Assembly: GCA_024137785.1 (NCBI GenBank) | Contig: JAHRHZ010000111.1 | Coordinates: forward strand, 13,456,888-13,520,887 | From: Ginglymostoma cirratum | Taxonomy: Eukaryota | Reading direction: 5' to 3' | DNA: 64,000 nt | Shown: positions 14,831 through 63,219 of the stretch, piece by piece | How positions within the stretch are numbered: the stretch's first letter is position 1 | How the letters are laid out: every line of letters begins with the position of its first letter | Made by a program: the position numbers and the translations under genes | The notes under the pieces: model-generated | What the model saw: the letters and a program-made list of their open reading frames with translations, nothing else | What the model was told of the DNA's origin: nothing | Database searches by the model: none

Positions 14831-16321
14831 TTATTTAAATTAGGTTTGCTATGAATGTTAACTATGGAAAGGGAAGAGCAATAGGACTTTGTAAAATAAT
14901 GAGTGGGATCAAGACAACCTACAAATCCATTGGGTGCCTCGGTTTCTCAGCATATATATTTTAAAATAAATTGGTAAAATAACTTGTTACCGACAAAAAA
15001 GAGTGGCAGATACTGTCATTTTCATGAGCCTTGAGGCAGGTAATGAGTCATCATAAATACGACTGCTGATCTTACAATTCATTGTATAGGTAAAAAGAAT
15101 GAAGCTTCGATTGACTGATTGTAAAGTCAGTAAAGGCAACAAACGAAAAGTCTCTTCAATAAGTAAATTTTACGTGAAAATGTTATAAGGTAAATGGAGA
15201 ATGGTGGTGGGGAACAAGGGTTCAATCAATCTGTTGCTGTAACTTAGGGGCAATTGATGAAATTACCTTTAACAGAACCATTATTCAGCCAATCTTTTGT
15301 AAAGTTATGCTGGAAAATCAGAAAATATTAGAAATTTTACCCCATGTAATCACCTTTACTCATGGAGCAGGTAATTTACAGCATAATGTAATAATGATAC
15401 TTTTGTCATTGGCGTTCAATGTGAAAGTGTTCAAATACCATCATTAAAATTTTAAATTATATTTTAAAAATCTCCTGATCCAAAAACTTACAGCAATTGG
15501 AAATGAAAAGTAGAATTGATTGAAGGCTTGAGTGAACACTACAAGGTCAGAAGGCCTTGCATAACTTTACCCTGTTTAGTCAGACTTACAATGCATTGTG
15601 ATCATTTTTATATTCTGGTGTTCACAGCCTTATCATAGAATCCCTACAGTGCAGAAGTGGTCTGCACCAAACCTCCGAAGAACGACGCATCCAGATTGAC
15701 AATGAGGAGCTTTTATTTTCCACACCAACTTGTAATGCTCTGGAATAAACTGCCTGAAAGGATCCAACAATAACTTCCAAAAGAGAACTGAATAAATACT
15801 TGAAGGGGGAGAAACTACAGGACTTTGGAGAACTGGAAGATGAGTGGGATTAATTGAGTAGTTTTAGCAGTAAAGTTTCTTATAGCACGGAGTGCCTGCC
15901 CAATTGAACACGCTGTATATTTGCAATGTAACAATGTCGAACATCCAACAGGTCATTTTTTAATGGTGGAATCTTTCCAGATTAGACAGATTCAATCAGT
16001 GATAATCACTTTATGGACTTTTATCTACCTACCTAGTCCAATATCTCACTTGACACTTTTCACAGACTTCTTTAAATCATTGTGGAACTGTGAAAAATCA
16101 AAACATTAATTTTTTTCTTTGAGCAAGTGAGCCATTAGCGAGTATTGTGTTCAGCAGTCGTATCTGTACATTTATCTCTGAGTTAGGTGTTTCAACTATC
16201 ACAGAATAGTCATGACTTGAGCTAATGTTAAGGCTGACTCCTCTATAATCTAGACTAGGCATCAGCTCTACTCAGTCCCACAATCTCAAATTTACACAGC
16301 CAAGTTGCTTGGTACACTGTC

Positions 16322-16780
16322 CTACTCAGTAGAATGTGTTGTCAGTCCTAGGTACTGCCTCAGAAATTTGCTATATCTCTTCTGATTGGTCTGTCTATTC
16401 AAATTGCTCCAGTTCCTAACTGATTTTCTGACTCCCATGAAGCCTCCATATCTTTTCTGGAAACTTCTGTTGCCCTCTGCAACTTCTCTGATATGATGTT
16501 TCCTCTCTGTCTCTCGTTGACTGTTGTCCATCTCAGATATGGTCTCATCCCCATCATCATAGGCGTGCACCACACTGCCATTGGGCCACATGGTCTTCAT
16601 GGTTTGAAGAAAGCCCCAAGTGTTTGCCGAGTTGATTCTACTATTGCTTCCAGCATTACCAAAAGACAGGCTTCTGGTTTGAGATGTAGTTACACCCACA
16701 GGTGATGCTGAGGCGATTTTTCTGCAGTCTTCCCAAACGACAGAGGATATAACTTTCCCTTTGCACTGTTGAATACAGAC
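16322..16780 (-). CDS. PNOC-like: Prepronociceptin-like opioid precursor, second coding exon (152 aa + stop)
   Basis: Acceptor gttgttttag at 16782-16781. Reads VCIQQCKGKVISSVVWEDC...QKR-YGGFMGVRKSVRNWSNLNRQTNQ-KR-YSKFLRQYLGLTTHSTE*, the nociceptin + nociceptin-II layout. Confidence 0.95.
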   Translation of the reverse strand, partial: VCIQQCKGKVISSVVWEDCRKIASASPVGVTTSQTRSLSFGNAGSNSRINSANTWGFLQTMKTMWPNGSVVHAYDDGDETISEMDNSQRETERKHHIREVAEGNRSFQKRYGGFMGVRKSVRNWSNLNRQTNQKRYSKFLRQYLGLTTHSTE

Positions 16781-16952
16781 CTAAAACAACAGGAAAAGTT
16801 ACTCAGTGATTGAATGTACCTCTGATTCCTTTAAATTAATAATTTGATTATATCAATCTACAAGTTTTTGCATTCTTATATAGGACTGGGTGTAGACCAT
16901 TATCAAATTAGATCATGACCTTACCCTGAAGTCACGCCTTTGCTTCACCTCC

Positions 16953-16973
16953 TCCCCCCCCCCCCCCCCCCCC
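16953..16973. repeat. C21 homopolymer (G21 on the PNOC-like sense strand)
   Basis: Read directly from the sequence. Confidence 0.9.
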
Positions 16974-18017
16974 GCTTTATCCAACAATAATCGAACAACA
17001 AAACAGAAAATGCAGCATAAACTCAGCAGGTCTGGCAGCATTTGTGGAGATACAAAGGATTACCATTTCAAATCCTATTACAACTTCTTCAGATAGGAAA
17101 TATCCTAGCAGTATTAGTCTTGAAAGATCTAATTGATCCTAGCATCTGGTGCCTTTTGGGAAAGATTTCCAGATTTGCATTAACCATTGTTTGAAGAAGT
17201 GCTTTCTAATTTCACTTATGAACAGTTTAACCCAACATTAAAATTGTTTCCTGGCTCTGGATTCCCCAATTAGAGGGAATGGTTTCCTCAATGTGCCCTA
17301 TTGAATAATTTTATAATTTAAACCCCAAAATCAGATAAACCCCTTAACAATCAAAAATCAAGGGCATCTAAATCAAGCTTTTATAAAATATTATAATTTA
17401 GACCTGGAAGTTTAGTATGATTCCAGTAAATATGAAACCCAAGGAACGGCATTCTCAACTGAATAGTTCTTCAGATGAGGACAATCAAAGCTTTGTACAG
17501 ATCACACATAGTTCTGGTGTTTGTTGTGACCATGGAGCTCATTACTAATTACATGTTAGTGAACAGTTCCAGAAATGACGCTGATGGAACTGATCATACT
17601 TCCACTAAATCGATCCATCGACTGTCTGAAGGAGTCAAGCGCCACACTTTTCATCCTGAACCTAAAGTCCTGTAATTCAGTCCTGCACTCCCACCTTCCC
17701 GCCAGTGGTTGGTGCTAGTGTACTTTGTACAGCCCATACTTGTTAACGTATTCTGAAAGGCTTACGCTGTGGTAGCGCTGTGCTTTGTCTGTCAATGAAA
17801 TTTCTCGGTCCACAGTGAGCCCCTATGTATCTTCTGTTTACGCCTCCTTGGTCTGTATCAACCTCAAAGAAAACAATTTCCCCTTATCTAATCTCGCCAA
17901 CCTTACAATTCGTTACACAATGGATTACAGATCAGATAATACCGTGAGAGACAACCAGTGACAAAACCCCATAAATACAGATTAAAATAGGCATGCAAGA
18001 GGGATACAAAGACTCAC

Positions 18018-18143
18018 CAGTACATTGAAGTGTTGGCGCTGATAGAAGAGTTTGTGACAGGTGAGGCACTCAGCCACACAATCTCCCTGCGAACAAGGAA
18101 CCAAATAAAAGAGCAGTACTAGAGATAGGAGACAGATCTTCAT
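18018..18143 (-). CDS. PNOC-like: Prepronociceptin-like precursor, first coding exon: signal peptide and Cys motif (MKICLLSLVLLFYLVPCSQGDCVAECLTCHKLFYQRQHFNVL); whole exon 18163-18018
   Basis: Not in the ORF track (42 codons). Acceptor ttttttttctttttcag (18165-18164), ATG 18143-18141, donor gtgagt at 18017. Phase-0 join completes the six-Cys opioid precursor domain. Confidence 0.93.
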
Positions 18144-18517
18144 ATTGACTCAAATAGGATGGGCTGAAAAAGAAAAAAAAGTATGTTAAACATTCAGCTG
18201 AAATATCAGTTTCATTTAGTTGCTCTTCAGACATATTAATAACATAGTATATAACTGAAATTCAATGAAGTCTCTTGCGGTGCAATGGTAGTTTCCCTAC
18301 TTCTGGGCCAGAAGGCCTGGGTACAGATCCTATCTGCTCCGGAGGTGTGTAGTAACATCTGTGAACAAATTGATTAGAAAATATCAATAACTGAAATTCA
18401 AATGTGATCTTGGATAAGAGATAAAAGGTACTGCAGATGCTGGAGAATCCGAGATAACAAGGCGTGGGGCTGGATGAACACAGCAGGCCAAGCAGCATCA
18501 TAGGAGCAGGAAAACTT

Positions 18518-18545
18518 GACGTTTCGGGCCTAGACCCTTCATCAG
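18518..18545 (-). ncRNA. Minimal type I hammerhead ribozyme motif, sense to the PNOC-like pre-mRNA
   Basis: Exact reverse-complement copy of 18998-19025. Confidence 0.65.
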
Positions 18546-18571
18546 AAAAAATTTTTTCTGATGAAGGGTCT

Positions 18572-18971
18572 NNNNNNNNNNNNNNNNNNNNNNNNNNNNN
18601 NNNNNNNNNNNNNNNNNNNNNNNNNNNNNNNNNNNNNNNNNNNNNNNNNNNNNNNNNNNNNNNNNNNNNNNNNNNNNNNNNNNNNNNNNNNNNNNNNNNN
18701 NNNNNNNNNNNNNNNNNNNNNNNNNNNNNNNNNNNNNNNNNNNNNNNNNNNNNNNNNNNNNNNNNNNNNNNNNNNNNNNNNNNNNNNNNNNNNNNNNNNN
18801 NNNNNNNNNNNNNNNNNNNNNNNNNNNNNNNNNNNNNNNNNNNNNNNNNNNNNNNNNNNNNNNNNNNNNNNNNNNNNNNNNNNNNNNNNNNNNNNNNNNN
18901 NNNNNNNNNNNNNNNNNNNNNNNNNNNNNNNNNNNNNNNNNNNNNNNNNNNNNNNNNNNNNNNNNNNNNNN
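18572..18971. other. Assembly gap (400 N)
   Basis: Run of N. Confidence 0.99.
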
Positions 18972-18997
18972 AGACCCTTCATCAGAAAAAATTTTTT

Positions 18998-19025
18998 CTG
19001 ATGAAGGGTCTAGGCCCGAAACGTC
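18998..19025 (+). ncRNA. Minimal type I hammerhead ribozyme motif
   Basis: CUGAUGA-A-GGGUC/UA/GGCCC-GAAA-CG-UC: intact core, stem II and GUC cleavage triplet. Confidence 0.7.
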
Positions 19026-20619
19026 AAGTTTTCCTGCTCCTATGATGCTGCTTGGCCTGCTGTGTTCATCCAGCCCCACGCCTTGTTATCTCGGATTCTC
19101 CAGCATCTGCAGTACCTTTTATCTCTCACAGAACAATAAAATCACTTGTTTTAATTAATGCCAGAATGTTCATCTTCTGGCAATTAATTGTGCACTCACC
19201 TTTACTGGCTCCAACCCCGCCTTTTTGACCTGTGTGTCTCCTCTCCAACTATCTTCTTCTTTATCCATCTTCTATCCGCCTCCCCCTCTCTCCCTATTCA
19301 TTTCAGAATCCCCTTCCCCTCCCCCATTTCTGATGAAGGGTCTATGCCCGAAACGCCAAGTTTTCCTGCTCCTATGATGCTGCTTGGCCTGCTGTGTTCA
19401 TCCAGCCTCACACCTTGTTATTTCAAATGTGATCTTGTGGCACAGTGGTAGTGTCCCTACCTCTGGGCCAGAATACCTAAATTCAAGTTCAACCTGCTGT
19501 AGAGGTGTGTCATATCATGTCTGGATAGGTTGATTTAAAATATCTATCACTGAAACACAGATTTCGAATAAATAAAACACTGAACTAATATATTAACAGC
19601 AAGTACTGGAGAAACTCAACATGTCTGCCAGCATCCATGAAAAGGAAAAACAGAGTTAATGTTTTGAGTTCAATATGACACTTCTTCAGGAGTCTCAATT
19701 ATAGCACATATGGAACAACTAAAATACTAACCTCTCTAAAACTAACAGATCCAGAATAATTAAAACACAGCTTTCAATAAGTGACTGCAACAGAACAGTC
19801 CATGTCACCTTCCAATTTTTCTGATCCGAATCTGTCATAATCATTTTTCTTATGCTTGTCCATTTTCCCTTGAAATGCAAAAATATATATCAAACACTCC
19901 TTGAGTCAGAGTTTTACATTTTAGCACTGTTTAGGTGAAGACATTTCTTCTGAACTCCCTATCAATTTCTCGGTGACAACCTTACGTTGCTACCTCTAGT
20001 TCTGTTCTTCTCCACCCTACTAAAACTTTTCATAATATTAAAGGCATTTAATAGATCGTCCCTCAGAATGTTTTTCAAGAGAAAAGCAACCCACATTGTC
20101 AATTCTTTCCTGCTATGTATACTCACTTATACTTTTCTAGTATCATTCTCGTAAATCTTCTCTGCACCCTCTCCAAGGCTTCTATACGCTTTCTTTAATT
20201 TAGTAATTAGAACTGTACGCAGTATTCTGACTCACAGTTTCACAACAATAAAGAGCCTCTCCATTATGGTAAAAATGTGGCAGAGTGGCTGAAACTCTTT
20301 AGTCCTGCACCCAAACATGACACTTGTGCATTTTGTGCATAATCATTCTACGGAGGCAACTGGCTGTTTAAATCACCAGCTGCCTATGGAAGTGGGATTT
20401 TGTTAGCCATTGAAAATGAAACCCAAAGTATAAAGATTAGATCTGGTGAGAGCTGATCTGAACTTTGTGCATTTATTTGGATAGCCACCATGTCCCTTGG
20501 AATCTGCTGCCAAGATGCCTTTGGAGGAGGTGTGGCACACTTAAGAATTGCCTAAAGTGGTCATAAATGTGCATAAATTCACTAACTGCCAAAACCTGTT
20601 AGAAGCACCTGTCAAAACT

Positions 20620-30513: not shown

Positions 30514-30710
30514 CTGAGAATGTCCGCCAGTGACTGGGTAACTGCTGTTGTGAGCTCTTCCTTCTCTCTCTCTCTCTCTCACACACACAGAGCAAGATTC
30601 GTCTCCTCAATCCTAAAGCAGGGTTTCACACTGTCCTTGTGTTTAACTCCCCTCTTCTGATATACCCTGACTGGACAGACAAACCAGACAGTCAGCAAGC
30701 GAGAGCACAC
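30514..30710 (-). other. PNOC-like: Probable non-coding exon 1 (5' UTR) of the PNOC-like gene
   Basis: Donor CAG|gtagga at 30514/30513, no ATG in the exon, directly downstream of TATA-like and CCAAT motifs. Opioid precursor genes typically have an untranslated first exon. Confidence 0.55.
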
Positions 30711-56898: not shown

Positions 56899-57444
56899 AT
56901 GGAGAAGCTATGCCACTATGAGATTGTTGGGGAACTTGGCCAAGGGAGTTATGGGACTGTGTATGAAGCAAGACACTGCAAGAGCCAAGTTAAAGTTGCT
57001 TTGAAGAAAGTGTTGTGCAACTCTCCTGAATCTTCAGAACTGGCTCTGCAGGAATTCTGGGCACTGAGCAGCGTGAAGAAGAGACACCAAAATGTGATCT
57101 GGCTTCATGAGTGCATCCTGCAAAAGGAGGAGATCATCCAGAGGATCAAGAAGGCTCCTCAGGAATCAGAGAGCCATTTGCTCCTGATCGAGACTTGCCT
57201 GAAGGGGAAGTGTTGCTTTGACCCTAGGATGTCCCATGTTTTGTGGTTTGTGATGGAGTTCTGTGATGGGGGTAATCTGAATGACTACTTGCTGAGCAGA
57301 CATGCTGATAGCAGGATGAACAATCGCTTCATACAACAGCTCAGTGCTGCTGTGGTGTTCCTGCACCTCAACCAGATCATCCATCGAGACCTCAAACCAG
57401 ACAATGTCCTCATTGCCAACACTCCAACTGGACCTCTTTTAAAG
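56899..57444 (+). CDS. STK35/PDIK1L-family Ser/Thr kinase, first visible coding exon (182 aa)
   Basis: GQGSYG loop, VALKK, family signature ELALQEFWALSS, LWFVMEFCDGG, HRDLKPDN; donor AAG|gtgagg at 57445. Confidence 0.93.
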
Positions 57445-57654
57445 GTGAGGAGTTGAAGTTATTCTTTATGCAAAAGGGTAAGTACACATTTGCATTAGTA
57501 CTTCAGCTGTTATGGCACATTTGGCCCATTGTGTTTGTGCAGGTTCTGTTACCTAGTGTCAGTCTCCTGTCTGTCCCCATATTCCTGCACGCTGAATCAT
57601 AAGTTGGATCTAAAGGCAATGTCCTCTTGAATGCCCCTCCTTTTTCTGACTTTA

Positions 57655-58555
57655 GGATGTTGGAGCTGGGTCTGTTTTTGTCATTTTATCTAAATGAGTT
57701 TAGATGAGAATATAGAAAGCATGGTTAGTAAATTTATGGATGATACCAAAATTGGTGATTTTAGTAGACAGTGAAGAAGGTCATCTAAGATTACAAAGGG
57801 ATCTTGATCAATTAGCTGAATGGGCTGAGGAATGGCAGATGGAGTTTAATTTGGATAAATGCAAGGGATTACACTTTGCTAAAACAAACAAGGACAGGAC
57901 TTGTATAATTAATGGTTGAGTCTTGGGTAGTGACCTAAGGGTTCAGGCACATAATTCTTTGAAGTTTGTGTCACATAAATAGGGTGGTTAAAGTGTGTAG
58001 CACGTTGCTGTCATTGCTCTGACGGTCTAGGAGTTGGGATGTCCTTTTGAGGTTATACAGGACATTGGTAAGGTATCTTCTGCAGTATTGTCTAATCTTG
58101 GTTGCCCTGTTAGAGAAAGGATATTAGACTGGAGATGGTTCAGAAAAGATTTCAGGATGATGCTGGGAATAAAGGGCTTGAGTTACAAGGAGAAGCTGGG
58201 ACTTTTTTCACTAGTGTAGGAAGTTGAGGGGTGACTTTGTAAATATCTATACCCCTCATGACCTTATAGAAAGTGTCTTATTCCTAGGGTGGGGTACTTT
58301 CAGATTAGGGGACACATTTTTATAGTGAAAAGAGAAAGATCACGTGGCAATTTTTTTTCTTTAAACAGTTGGTTGTGTGGAATGAACTTCTAGATGAAGT
58401 GGTGGATGTGGATACATTTTTTTTTGTACAAGGTTTAAGACACTTAAATATGTACACGAATAAGAAATGTTTGGAGGGATATGGGCCAAGTGCAGTTAAG
58501 GGGGATTATAGTCAGTATGGACTGGCTGGACTGAAGGCTCTGTTTCCAGACTGAG
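57655..58555 (+). mobile_element. CR1 3' fragment in the kinase intron (further CR1 pieces at ~51895-52275, ~52820-53240, ~58710-59210, ~62290-62795)
   Basis: KFMDDTKIG, WAEEWQMEFNLDKC. Confidence 0.8.
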
Positions 58556-60599
58556 TGTTTCACAACCAATAAAGTGTAAACACTTTTCCTTTATGAAGAA
58601 TAATAATAATCTGTGCAAAACAGACTCTTAGACAACATGAGTGACCAAGCAATTTGTTTGCCATATTGAAGTATCAATATTATTCTGGGTTGTCCACTTC
58701 CTATAAGTCCAGAAGAAATAAGGACAGGAGGTTGCTGCTCAGCCCATCCAAGTCTGTTCCACTATTCAATCAGATTATAGCTGATCTGACATTTCTCATA
58801 ACCACTTTCTTGCCCATTACCTGTAACCCTTGATGCCCCTACTGATCAAGAATCTGTGTATCTCAGCCTTAATTACACACAAGGACTCGATGACCAGGGG
58901 ATTAAAATCCCTTAACCCTGAGGGAAGAAGTGCTTCCTCATCTCAGTCCCAAATTGCTGCCCCTTTATTCTGAGACTGTGCCCCCGATCCTAAATCGTCC
59001 CATGAGGGGAACTATCCTCAGCATTTACCCTATCAAGCCCCTTTAAGAATCATCTGTTTGTTTCAATGAGATCACCTCCCATTCTTCTTAACTCCAGTGA
59101 GTAGAGTCCCAACCTCTTTGGCCTTTATTCATAAGACAATCTGTCCAGTACCAAGGATCATTCCTAGTGAACTGTGTTGAACTGCCTCCAATGAAATGAT
59201 ATCTTTCTCTTGCAAATAATGCAGCAGTATCTTTTACATCCAGCACTGTCAATGTGGTGACTGGATCTCCAAAATGCAGTGTTTCACAGTCCAGAGATTA
59301 TGCATCGTCCTGTCTAGATGGGATTGAACCTATGACCTTGTGAATAACGTACAAATGAAGTCATTTTCTTTCTGAGGATTCACTCTAGCTTTTAAGGACG
59401 GTGTCACTAACCTACTGACACCATTACCTATTATCCATTCAGACCTCAGCTACTGATTAGTATCTAATTTTCCATTAGGATGAAGCCTCGCAATCTTGAA
59501 CCTGAAATGTAATTCTGTCTTCACCCTGATTTTTTTTTCAAAAACGTCTGACCTCATGAAATTAAATCTGTTTAAAGTGCAACCATTTGAAATTCTTCTG
59601 AGCTGTACTAACAGATCTGTTGCTAGTGCACAATCCTGCTCCATTGTAGCCCCAGACCTATCCTGAAAACCCAACAGTCGCTCTTGGTGTTTTCTGCTCT
59701 TTTTAAATGTACACTTTTAACCTGAATTGTTGCAGAATCAGCTGGAAAATAACTTTGCCTTGATACTTACTCTGGCACAAACTTTTCAGACCACACTTTT
59801 GATTTACTTAGGCTAGATCTGACAATCCTTCCTCTTTATATATTGCAAGCCTTGAAAAGTCAGTACAACTTTAAACATTCAATGTTGTCATAATATTTAA
59901 AAAGTGGAATATTCTGACACATTAAGAGGTGTAGATTTTACAGTGGGTCTTATTGAAAAGTCATTAATGGTTATCATTTAAATGGTATTACAATTTGGAA
60001 GGAAATTGGTTGACCAGCTTGCAATCAGCTGAGACAGACGCCGACTTTTGAATGTTGGCTGCAATAGCTTCTCTAAATTGACTGTGCAGCAGATGTAACT
60101 ATTGCAAAAAAAAACTCGGGTCATTTTTTTTTTTGGATGAAAAAAATCAGTAGTTTAAAGACTGTGTGCAAGCAGTCTAATCCAGGATCCTGCTCTTGCT
60201 GTGAATTTCAATAGGGAGTTTGCATTCGAGCTCCAGGAAGCAAAGTTCACAATTCATGTGCAATTACTAAGTGAATGAACAGAACCTCAACATCCTCAGG
60301 GGCTAAGAATTAGAAGTGGAACTGGGCTCAGATGAGACACTAAAGTACAAGGAGAAACAAAAATGAGGAGTTGCAAAGATAGAGGGCTGAGTGACATTTT
60401 TGATTTTAATCTGAAGGGGAATAATCAGGCTCTGTAAAACCTAGAGCAAGGATGCTGTTGTGTGAAGAGGCCACAAATCTGAGTTTATACTTTTAATCTC
60501 TAGTTACCACACTTAGTGGGGAGGGTTCTCCTCTGGAGAGAAGTTAGGTTTGAGGGAGAGAGAATGGGATTGTTTATGTGGGGGTGGGGATGGGGTCAC

Positions 60600-61600
60600 T
60601 TCCACTCAACCAGGACCATCAAGCCAGGAGATCAACTCTGGCTCCATGAAGAGTGCAGGAGGGCATGCCTGAAGATGAGGGGTCAACCTGGTTAAGTTAC
60701 CAAACATCACTACTTGCACACCAAACAGTTTAAGCAGCAAGTGATAGCCAAATGATCCCAAAACTACCAAATCGATCTTAAAGCTCTGCAGTCCTGTCAC
60801 ACGTCCAGTTATGAATGGTGGTGGACAATTAAACAATATTTGGAGAAGGAAGCTCCACAAATCTCCCCATCTTCAATGATGAAAGAGCCCCAGTATCTGT
60901 GCAAAATAGAAGACTGAAGTATTCACAGCAATCTTCAACCAGAAGTGCTGACTGGATGATCCATCTCAGCCTCCTCTGGTAGTCCTCAGCAGCACAGTCT
61001 TCAGCCAATTCAATTCACTCCAAGTGATATAAGAAAGGAATACTGCAGCAAATAACTCCTCTCCTCCAAAGCCTGTCTGCCATCTACACTGCACATGTCA
61101 GGAGTGTAATGGAATGCTTACCACTTGCCTGGATGGTGCAACTGCAGCAATATTGAGCTTGACACCATCCAGGACAAAGCAGCCCACTTGATTTGGCACT
61201 GCATCCACTCCCTCCATCACCAATGCTCAATACACACTGTTTCTATCTATAAAATGCACTGAAGAAGTTGACCAAAGATCCTTAGACAGCACCTTCCAAG
61301 CCCATGACTACTTCCATCTTGAGGGTAATGGGCAGTAGATACATGGGAATGCAACCTCCCGCTTTTTCCAAACCCACAAGCCATTCCCCATCCTGACTTG
61401 GAAATATATCACTGTTCCTTCACTGTTGCTGTGTCAAAATCCTAGAATTCCCTCCCTAATGTCATTGTGGGTCAACCCACAGCACGTAGACTGCAGCGGT
61501 TCAAGAAGGCAGCTCACCACCACCTTCTCAAGGGCAACTAGGGACAAGCAATAAATTCTGGTACAGCCAGCAACACCCACGTGCCATGGGTGAATAGAAC
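60600..61600 (+). mobile_element. Non-LTR retrotransposon fragment, same family as 22450-23462
   Basis: LDTIQDKAAHLI motif and shared 3' tail. Confidence 0.7.
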
Positions 61601-62883
61601 ACTTACTATAGGCAACTGCTCAAGCAGCTGCCTCCTGTGCTGTAATAATTTTGATTGGATTCAATTTTCTGCTGTATCTACTTTTTTCAGCTTAGCAGTA
61701 AATGTTGTCTGTTTTAGCTGATTGTTACCATTGAGCACTCACTCAATGCATGATGGACAATTTTTGTCAGGACATGCAATGGAACTGAAGAACTAGAAAT
61801 AATTTTAATTATAAAAATGCTAAAGGTTGCCAGCTCTTTGTTTGTTTACAGATGCTGGAAATCAGCACTGCTTTTCAGTCCTCACTGGAGGTTGAGGTGG
61901 TGTTAATCTGTCCTACGTCATCATTGTTTGTAAACATTAGCTTTTCAACCACTTTTTTAATAGAAAATGTTTAACTTTCAGATTTGGTACTGACTAATTG
62001 AGTCTGAAATTCACTAATTGTCAACTGTTGAAGCAGACTGTGACAGTATTTAAAACCGGATTAGATGGGTGATGGAAAGAACAAAGGGGTATAAGAACCA
62101 AGCACTGTAGTCGTAGGAGGTTAAACACCAACATGGACCTGCTATTTCTGTCCTGTAACTATGTTCCCCTCAATTTTGCTTCACTCATCCATAATGTGAA
62201 ATCTAGTAGCTTAAATCACAGGCCCATCTGCTAAAATCCTGAATCTATTAAATATCTGATTATGTACAAATTCAGGATGAATCTTACAACTATAGAGCTG
62301 TACAGCATTGAAATGGACTCTTGGTCCAACTCCTCCATGCTGACCAGAGATCCTAAATTAATCTAGTCCCATTTGGCCCAGATCCCTCTTAAACCCTTCC
62401 TGTTCATTCCCATCCAGATGCCTTTATAAAGGTTGTAATTGTACCAGCCTCCTCCACTTTATCTGGCAGCTCATTCCATACATGCACCACCCTCTGAAAA
62501 AGTTGCCCTTTGGGTCCTTTTTTGGTAAATCTTCCCCTCTTGCCTTTAAACCTATGCCCTCTACTTTTGGACTCCATTACTCCAAGGTAAAGACCTTGTC
62601 TATTCACCCTATCCATGCCCCTCATGATTTTGAAAACCTCTATAAAGGTCACCTCTCAACCTCCAATACTCCAGGGAAAATTGCCCCAGCCTATTCAGTG
62701 TTTCCCTGTAGCTCAAACCCTCCCATCCTGCCAACTTTCTTGTAAGTCTTTGAACCCTTTCAAGTTTCACCGCATGCTTCCTATAGGCAGGGAGACCACC
62801 TTCCTTTTAAAATAAATAACTAAACACTACTGGATCCCACGGATCCCCATCACCCAACTCTTGGTATCTGGTCAGTGAATTAG

Positions 62884-63219
<336 letters not shown>

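Follow-up and report, generated by a model that had tools for sequence, protein, structure and literature searches.

The prepronociceptin gene of the nurse shark and the 23-residue Met5 nociceptin of cartilaginous fishes

Background

The opioid precursors of jawed vertebrates form a set of four genes, and a six-Cys N-terminus with one coding intron is a feature of the family (passages of PMC2865548). Mammalian nociceptin has Phe1 and Thr5 and is inactive at the mu receptor (passages of PMC8279409), whereas the shark peptide that we discuss here, from the same gene lineage, has Tyr1 and Met5. Sturgeon orphanin is a ligand of every rat opioid receptor (PMC2865548, in part), mu and kappa are targets of zebrafish nociceptin, the zebrafish nociceptin receptor (NOP) binds dynorphin A and naloxone (passages of PMC9608236), and kappa is activated by chicken nociceptin (avian review), so that mixed NOP and opioid agonism is not new. 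For cartilaginous fishes, Supplementary Figure 4 of PMC10280075 already shows a catshark 23-mer under the name of nociceptin, and the available main-text passages of that paper hold no discussion of its length or of Met5.

Among the closest described genes are the PNOC genes of bony vertebrates (sturgeon, zebrafish, frog, chicken, lungfish and coelacanth), which share with the shark gene the pattern YGGF-x-G-x-RKS-x-R, Trp14, the terminal Gln and the KR flanks, and also the six-Cys N-terminus, one coding intron, a tail peptide and the locus. PENK, PDYN and POMC have multiple cores, dynorphins or HFRW, whereas the PNOC described here has one core, no HFRW and a nociceptin-type address. The YGGFM start of shark nociceptin is also that of Met-enkephalin, dynorphin A and beta-endorphin, but the precursors of these are encoded by separate genes, on contigs C228, C87 and C269 respectively.

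The gene and its transcripts

The window is the whole stretch of 64,000 nucleotides of Ginglymostoma cirratum DNA that was analysed, and is part of contig C111. The PNOC gene is on its minus strand, and two coding exons give a precursor with a total of 194 aa. The parts of the gene, in order of transcription, are:

30514..30550, minus strand: non-coding exon 1, 3' end only; a loose end of reads matches 30521-30550, with a GT donor after 30514
18301..18358, minus strand: non-coding 5' UTR exon; joint 18163/18301, with AG/GT sites
18018..18163, minus strand: whole exon with the start codon (ATG at 18143); encodes Cys22/26/29 and a leader of about 20 aa
18143-18018, minus strand: coding exon A; 42 aa, ATG at 18143, GT donor at 18017
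16781..18017, minus strand: intron between the coding exons; 1237 nt, joint in reads, AG/GT sites
16780-16322, minus strand: coding exon B; AG acceptor, 152 aa and TAG (16324-16322)
16322..16780, minus strand: coding part of the last exon; Cys44/48/61, spacer, nociceptin, C-terminal peptide, TAG

The RNA joint that skips the 1237 nt is in 27 polyA reads of run X10, with about 22 start places, and the same splice is in one contig each of runs X1 and X2. The original prediction, made from the DNA alone, of a spliced 194-aa precursor with six Cys and a KR-flanked 23-mer at 16450-16382 is confirmed by these reads and by the exon coordinates, and the possibility raised with it, that the gene is never transcribed, is answered by the spliced polyA reads. 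The joint 18163/18301 is in 21 reads of X10 and one X2 contig and the X1 contig is unspliced there: the 137-nt intron below the 18301..18358 exon is retained in some PNOC transcripts and removed in others. Exon 1 was placed by the loose end of 10 X10 reads. An X2 contig departs from the window at 18289 with a 255-nt loose end, possibly a further 5' exon, for which no place was found within the window.

Beyond the stop the minus strand has AATAAA at 15717 and ATTAAA at 15964, both candidate polyadenylation signals, and read depth continues as far as 15900, where the mapped stretch ends. There is a 400-base run of N (18572-18971) within 18420-19085, between inverted copies of one repeat element, and N runs between copies of such a repeat recur at two other loci in the genome. 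At window position 16563 both X2 and X10 have a G/A variant, by which Ala115 of the precursor becomes Val, as it is in whale shark and epaulette shark.

With regard to the protein, the mature region has six Cys (22, 26, 29, 44, 48 and 61) and the hydrophobic leader two more, the signal peptide being assigned by inspection and from homologues. The two exons match Pfam PF01160 at positions 1-23 and 24-46 respectively, and each match taken alone is below the curated cut-off. The precursor thus has the opioid-precursor N-terminus with its six conserved Cys and single coding-region intron, followed by a KR-flanked [YF]GGF-x-G-x-RKS-x-R peptide and then a non-opioid tail peptide. Searches gave 13 chondrichthyan homologues with E values from 7e-90 to 5.5e-13, all 13 of them prepronociceptin by name, and the PNOC reading frame is therefore not due to chance. 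Identity to the nurse shark precursor is 94% for whale shark, 86% for epaulette shark, 57-62% for other sharks, 45-48% for batoids and 36% for chimaera.

The 23-residue nociceptin

The peptide region has three features to be considered:

16382..16450, minus strand: nociceptin 23-mer, YGGFMGVRKSVRNWSNLNRQTNQ; KR at 16456-16451 and 16381-16376
16373..16408, minus strand: two decayed tandem 18-nt units, at peptide positions 15-20 and 21-26
16325..16375, minus strand: non-opioid C-terminal peptide of 17 residues, YSKFLRQYLGLTTHSTE

A 23-residue nociceptin starting with YGGFM is present in all 14 chondrichthyan sequences, with positions 1-6, 8-10, 12, 14, 17, 19 and 23 invariant and the KR after the 23-mer intact in each. 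Among the 107 bony-vertebrate nociceptins in the best 120 of 813 matches, 106 are 17-mers and one is a 19-mer, and position 5 is Ile in 105 and Val in two, with no Met. The shark peptide is not of the canonical 17-residue form with Ile, Val or Thr at position 5, and we class it as a chondrichthyan variant. The tail peptide of human PNOC, up to its RRR site, also has 17 residues, a match in length to that of the shark which may be a coincidence.

The six extra residues come after Trp14. Codons 15-20 and 21-26 are identical at 12-13 of 18 nt at a lag of 18 in the one species compared, and the 16373..16408 region holds every one of the 13 exon windows in which at least 11 positions match at this lag. 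Codon shuffles, again for one species, reached 12 matches in 0.4% of 20,000 trials (p = 0.004). The invariant Arg19 (16396-16394) is at the place expected for the Arg of an old KR site. We think it probable that the six residues came from an 18-nt tandem duplication, in which the peptide end x-N-Q-K-R-Y would have been doubled in the chondrichthyan ancestor, the first copy then losing its Lys and keeping its Arg as Arg19.

The original prediction also had cleavage at the internal RK releasing a 7-mer, YGGFMGV. However all 120 parsed nociceptins have RK at positions 8-9, which marks it as the normal basic address and not as a cut site specific to sharks, and we find no specific support for the 7-mer.

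Copy number, locus and tree

It had been proposed, chiefly from the divergence of the peptide, that the gene might be an extra opioid precursor paralogue rather than PNOC proper, and copy number in the genome and the locus bear directly on this.

The degenerate pattern [YF]GGF[IMT]G[VIAT]RK, drawn so as to cover the N-termini of mammalian, bony-fish and shark nociceptins, has a single match in 4.36 Gb, which is this PNOC gene. The pattern K[RS]-[YF]GGF has 37 matches in the genome, compared with 24 for a reversed-pattern control. Eleven of the 37 are in precursors, with six in PENK (C228), three in PDYN (C87) and one each in POMC (C269) and PNOC, and the other 26 are in short frames without precursor features; 34 of the 37 were translated, the remaining three being inside the PENK exon. 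With coelacanth PNOC as query the best match in the genome is this gene (8e-11), followed by PENK and PDYN. Searches by protein, by the PF01160 family and by pattern found no second PNOC in the nurse shark genome, where the assembly may have gaps and the searches, which score the best candidates only, give lower bounds on copy number. The PF01160 search misses POMC, which was detected through the opioid core pattern, and marginal PF01160 matches on C16 and C75, together with lower-scoring ones, are frames without an opioid core. Thus four precursors were detected, one each of PNOC, PENK, PDYN and POMC, and among the best 120 of 813 profile matches each chondrichthyan species occurs once.

The other three precursors have some features of their own. 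All but one of the opioid cores in shark PENK, PDYN and POMC are YGGFM. The PDYN gene (C87, 13.03 Mb) encodes an 18-residue Met5 dynorphin A and two degenerate upstream cores, and a catshark dynorphin is the same as that of nurse shark PDYN (passages of PMC10280075). The POMC exon (C269, 0.86 Mb) has four HFRW melanocortin cores and beta-endorphin. It lies on a separate contig of 1.3 Mb; in chicken, opossum and teleosts PNOC and POMC are on one chromosome.

The gene order on C111 is EXTL3 (13.07 Mb), FZD3 (13.35), PNOC (13.47), an STK35-family kinase (13.51) and ELP3 (13.58), with ELP3 68 kb past the kinase and FZD3 and EXTL3 about 120 and 400 kb away on the opposite side. This order, with ELP3 on one side and FZD3 and EXTL3 on the other, is that at PNOC in human. 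ZNF395, a neighbour of PNOC in human, was not found on C111, the DUF4772 matches being only on C19, C77 and C87, and its motif has no match in the window or in the 200 kb below it. The matches on C77 and C87 presumably represent ZNF704 and SLC2A4RG, as judged by neighbourhood, and the DUF4772 gene on C19 (0.767 Mb), away from PNOC, could be either a ZNF395 that has changed place or a further paralogue. EMILIN1 flanks the teleost PNOC locus, and a search for the EMI domain gave nine matches with none on C111. Together with the absence of ZNF395 from C111, this speaks against a fully conserved locus.

The kinase is in part within the window:

56899..63213, plus strand: STK35-family kinase in head-to-head orientation to PNOC; two exons, at about 56899-57447 and 62998-63213

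Its last exon is beyond the mapped part. There are three STK35-family kinases in the genome, this one, one 72 kb from PDYN on C87 and one on C25, and we assign the kinase beside PNOC to STK35L3 by its position. In opossum and frog STK35L3 has PNOC on one side and ELP3 on the other, it is reported as lost in placental mammals, and STK35L1 adjoins PDYN (passages of PMC2737284).

In a tree of the last exon PENK and PDYN are split from all 28 PNOC rows with support of 99/97, and the chondrichthyan and bony PNOC groups have support of 100/98 and 78/83 respectively. The chondrichthyan stem is long, and the tree is to be read with a long-branch warning, with the turtle and gar rows having dropped out and POMC left out. 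As judged from these sequences the tree fits orthology, and alone would not tell an orthologue from an old sister paralogue, so orthology is decided by locus and copy number and not by the tree.

Lineage-specific changes in carpet sharks

Among the bony PNOCs in the matches listed, 105 of 106 have an upstream opioid core 24-25 residues before nociceptin. Six sharks have such a core or its relic 24 residues ahead of nociceptin, but only two of the 14 chondrichthyans, sawshark and Heptranchias, have a dibasic site (KR or KK) before an intact upstream core, and the motif is gone in four batoids and chimaera. The two-core PNOC layout of non-amniotes is not present in the nurse shark. The upstream core is missing in mammals also and so is not a defining feature of PNOC (PMC2865548, in part). 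Two changes are involved in the carpet sharks:

16505..16507, minus strand: approximate site, from alignment, of a 25-codon deletion relative to white shark, which removes the upstream core
16292..16324, minus strand: TAG and relic in-frame tail (DSVPSNLAV, then TAA); the TAG replaces a Tyr of most other sharks

Both the deletion and the early TAG are common to the three carpet sharks, nurse shark, whale shark and epaulette shark. The early TAG is what brings the tail peptide down to 17 residues. The remaining sharks and rays differ from nurse shark in having precursors of 224-233 aa with a tail of 26-27 residues.

We can now consider two readings in which the gene is not an ordinary PNOC. The deletion, and the TAG with its relic tail, could be seen as a PNOC gene decaying to a pseudogene in carpet sharks, or the TAG as an assembly error, but the whale shark (P0003) and epaulette shark (P0004) proteins have the same 194-aa form, and their 23-mers are identical to that of nurse shark although the exon is 86-94% identical. 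In addition the transcripts are spliced, and at the TAG, where X10 has a depth of about 70, the reads show no variant. We regard decay or error as all but excluded. The extra paralogue would be a fifth opioid precursor, PNOC-like, alongside a canonical PNOC. It could draw on the Met5 and the 23 residues, unlike all 107 of the bony-vertebrate nociceptins in the best 120 of 813 matches, on the long stem of the chondrichthyan clade, and on the name "prepronociceptin b" carried in databases by chondrichthyan proteins, namely those of whale shark, epaulette shark, catshark (P0007) and ten others. However the a/b naming stems from the duplicate PNOC genes of teleosts (passages of PMC2865548), and the label on shark proteins is probably annotation transfer only. 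The divergence, which had been taken as a sign of a paralogue, is the same in all 14 chondrichthyan sequences, and there is one entry per chondrichthyan species among the best 120 of 813 profile matches. The genome searches also gave no PNOC besides this one, which the tree places with PNOC and which occupies the ELP3-kinase-PNOC locus. A PNOC-like paralogue had been mentioned as reported for birds, but the avian review counts four precursor genes, and the words "paralog" and "fifth" do not occur in it. We conclude that the gene is almost certainly the true PNOC orthologue, and that a fifth precursor is very improbable.

The nociceptin receptor of sharks

A search for opioid receptors with a TM3 motif gave four receptors in the genome. 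The NOP gene is on C87 (5.168 Mb), and the receptors taken as delta and kappa are on C25 (17.84 Mb) and C75 (24.74 Mb). Its best PDB match is NOP, with kappa narrowly behind, it is 99% identical to a Chiloscyllium nociceptin receptor, and in a quick tree of the last exon it falls inside the NOP group with SH-aLRT 99.

Human NOP has Ala216, Val-Gln-Val at 279-281 and Thr305, whereas shark NOP has Glu5.39, Ile-His-Ile at 6.51-6.53 and Val7.39 at these places, the residue at 5.39 in elasmobranch NOP being Glu and not Lys. His6.52 is present in all five chondrichthyan NOP proteins, from four species. Among 64 bony NOPs, taken by source name from the best 120 matches, it is present in only three (two squamates and Gambusia) and 61 have Gln6.52. 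The chimaera NOP (P0143), a ragged gene model with a long branch, has Lys5.39, Ile-His-Ile and Val7.39, which are the residues of fish kappa receptors. With regard to the effect of these residues, the change Gln280His in human NOP reportedly raises opioid affinity and lowers intrinsic activity, as given in the title of a 1996 paper cited in PMC8838650. A change of four residues reportedly turns NOP into an opioid-binding receptor, and positions 5.39, 6.51-6.53 and 7.39 of the pocket together would make this switch.

Two further observations concern these receptors. The ECL2 region of NOP has 3-4 acidic residues in elasmobranchs compared with 6-8 in lungfish, frog, bird and opossum, and the mu-like receptor (C18, 1.366 Mb) has Arg at 5.39, where Lys is conserved. 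In classical opioid receptors both His6.52 and Lys5.39 are involved in binding of the phenol, His6.52 contacting Tyr1 or its phenol (passages of PMC9604311 and PMC8840597).

Predicted processing and action

We have good confidence in a reading in which there is a single detected and transcribed PNOC gene in its normal locus, with a 23-mer that is predicted to be excised intact and that likely acts first at NOP, and more weakly at the classical receptors. The precursor would enter the regulated secretory pathway, and cleavage at the two KR sites, within secretory granules, would free the 23-mer and the 17-residue tail peptide. By analogy this is highly likely for entry and convertase cleavage alike, as it is the general course of proneuropeptide processing. 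The basic address RKS-x-R would then drive activation of NOP, very likely the main target for this reason, and Tyr1 and Met5 would add classical activity, which we expect to be measurable at mu, kappa and delta, a likely outcome by analogy if a little less so. Norleucine is an isostere of Met. On the human 1-13 backbone a Tyr1/Nle5 analogue has a pEC50 of 8.77 at NOP and 6.74 at mu, and with Tyr1/Val5 the mu curve is incomplete (passages of PMC8279409). On the other side of the account are the lowered intrinsic activity of opioids given for Gln280His and the Glu at 5.39 of elasmobranch NOP.

There are two other ways in which the peptide could act. Its selectivity for NOP in the shark could equal that of mammalian nociceptin, with Met5 and the extra residues neutral or affecting stability only. 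The 23-mer does retain the basic address, for which Glu5.39 could give an extra acidic contact, and the Tyr1/Nle5 and Tyr1/Leu5 analogues prefer NOP about 100-fold at human receptors, the Nle5 compound being a 13-mer on the mammalian backbone (PMC8279409, in part). However Met5 is the residue of Met-enkephalin and its isostere raises mu potency (same source), cross-reaction is reported for the Tyr1 nociceptins of sturgeon, zebrafish and chicken, and shark NOP retains His6.52, so that full selectivity seems to us unlikely, and mixed NOP/opioid agonism of the shark 23-mer, which was proposed in the original prediction, is likely by analogy with these cases. The main products could also be shorter, an 18-mer cut at the relic monobasic Arg19 or the 7-mer cut at Arg8-Lys9, or both. 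Convertases follow a basic-Xn-Arg rule, which Arg12-X6-Arg19 would fit, with Arg12 eight places ahead of the bond, and Arg-Lys is a poor convertase site. Arg12 and Arg19 are invariant in all 14 sequences, with Arg19 where the old KR ended, and tissue-dependent monobasic and dibasic processing of opioid precursors is described in the avian review. But the same 14 sequences also share Leu17, Gln23 and an unbroken far KR, as would be expected if the full 23-mer is under selection. The RK is common to all 120 parsed nociceptins, and mammalian nociceptin is an intact 17-mer (PMC8279409, in part). Shorter forms as the main products are less probable still than full selectivity for NOP, and even partial cleavage at Arg19 to give some 18-mer is doubtful. 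Thus we prefer the whole 23-mer, acting mainly at NOP, as the product.

Significance

The PNOC gene is an ordinary, annotated one, and the odd 23-mer is a class-wide form which both the databases and one review supplement already contain. The picture of four precursors and four receptors in jawed vertebrates stays unchanged. In the literature searched, with most subscription journals outside it, we found no account of the truncation in carpet sharks, of a duplication origin for the extra residues, or of shark nociceptin and NOP pharmacology and the chondrichthyan NOP pocket.

In chondrichthyans, the earliest-branching jawed lineage, both ligand (Tyr1, Met5) and receptor (His6.52) look classical, and they thus offer a direct test of whether NOP selectivity arose after their split. 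We suggest tentatively, at rather less than an even chance, that the nociceptin system of cartilaginous fishes is still a classical opioid one, in which the 23-mer would be potent at NOP and at mu, kappa and delta, shark NOP would bind enkephalins, dynorphin and naloxone, and an 18-residue form may add to this. If so, the opioid-blind NOP would have been built stepwise in bony vertebrates only, starting with the change from His6.52 to Gln, and sharks would be a living test of the ancestral NOP pocket, with relevance to the possible action of opioid drugs in sharks and rays.
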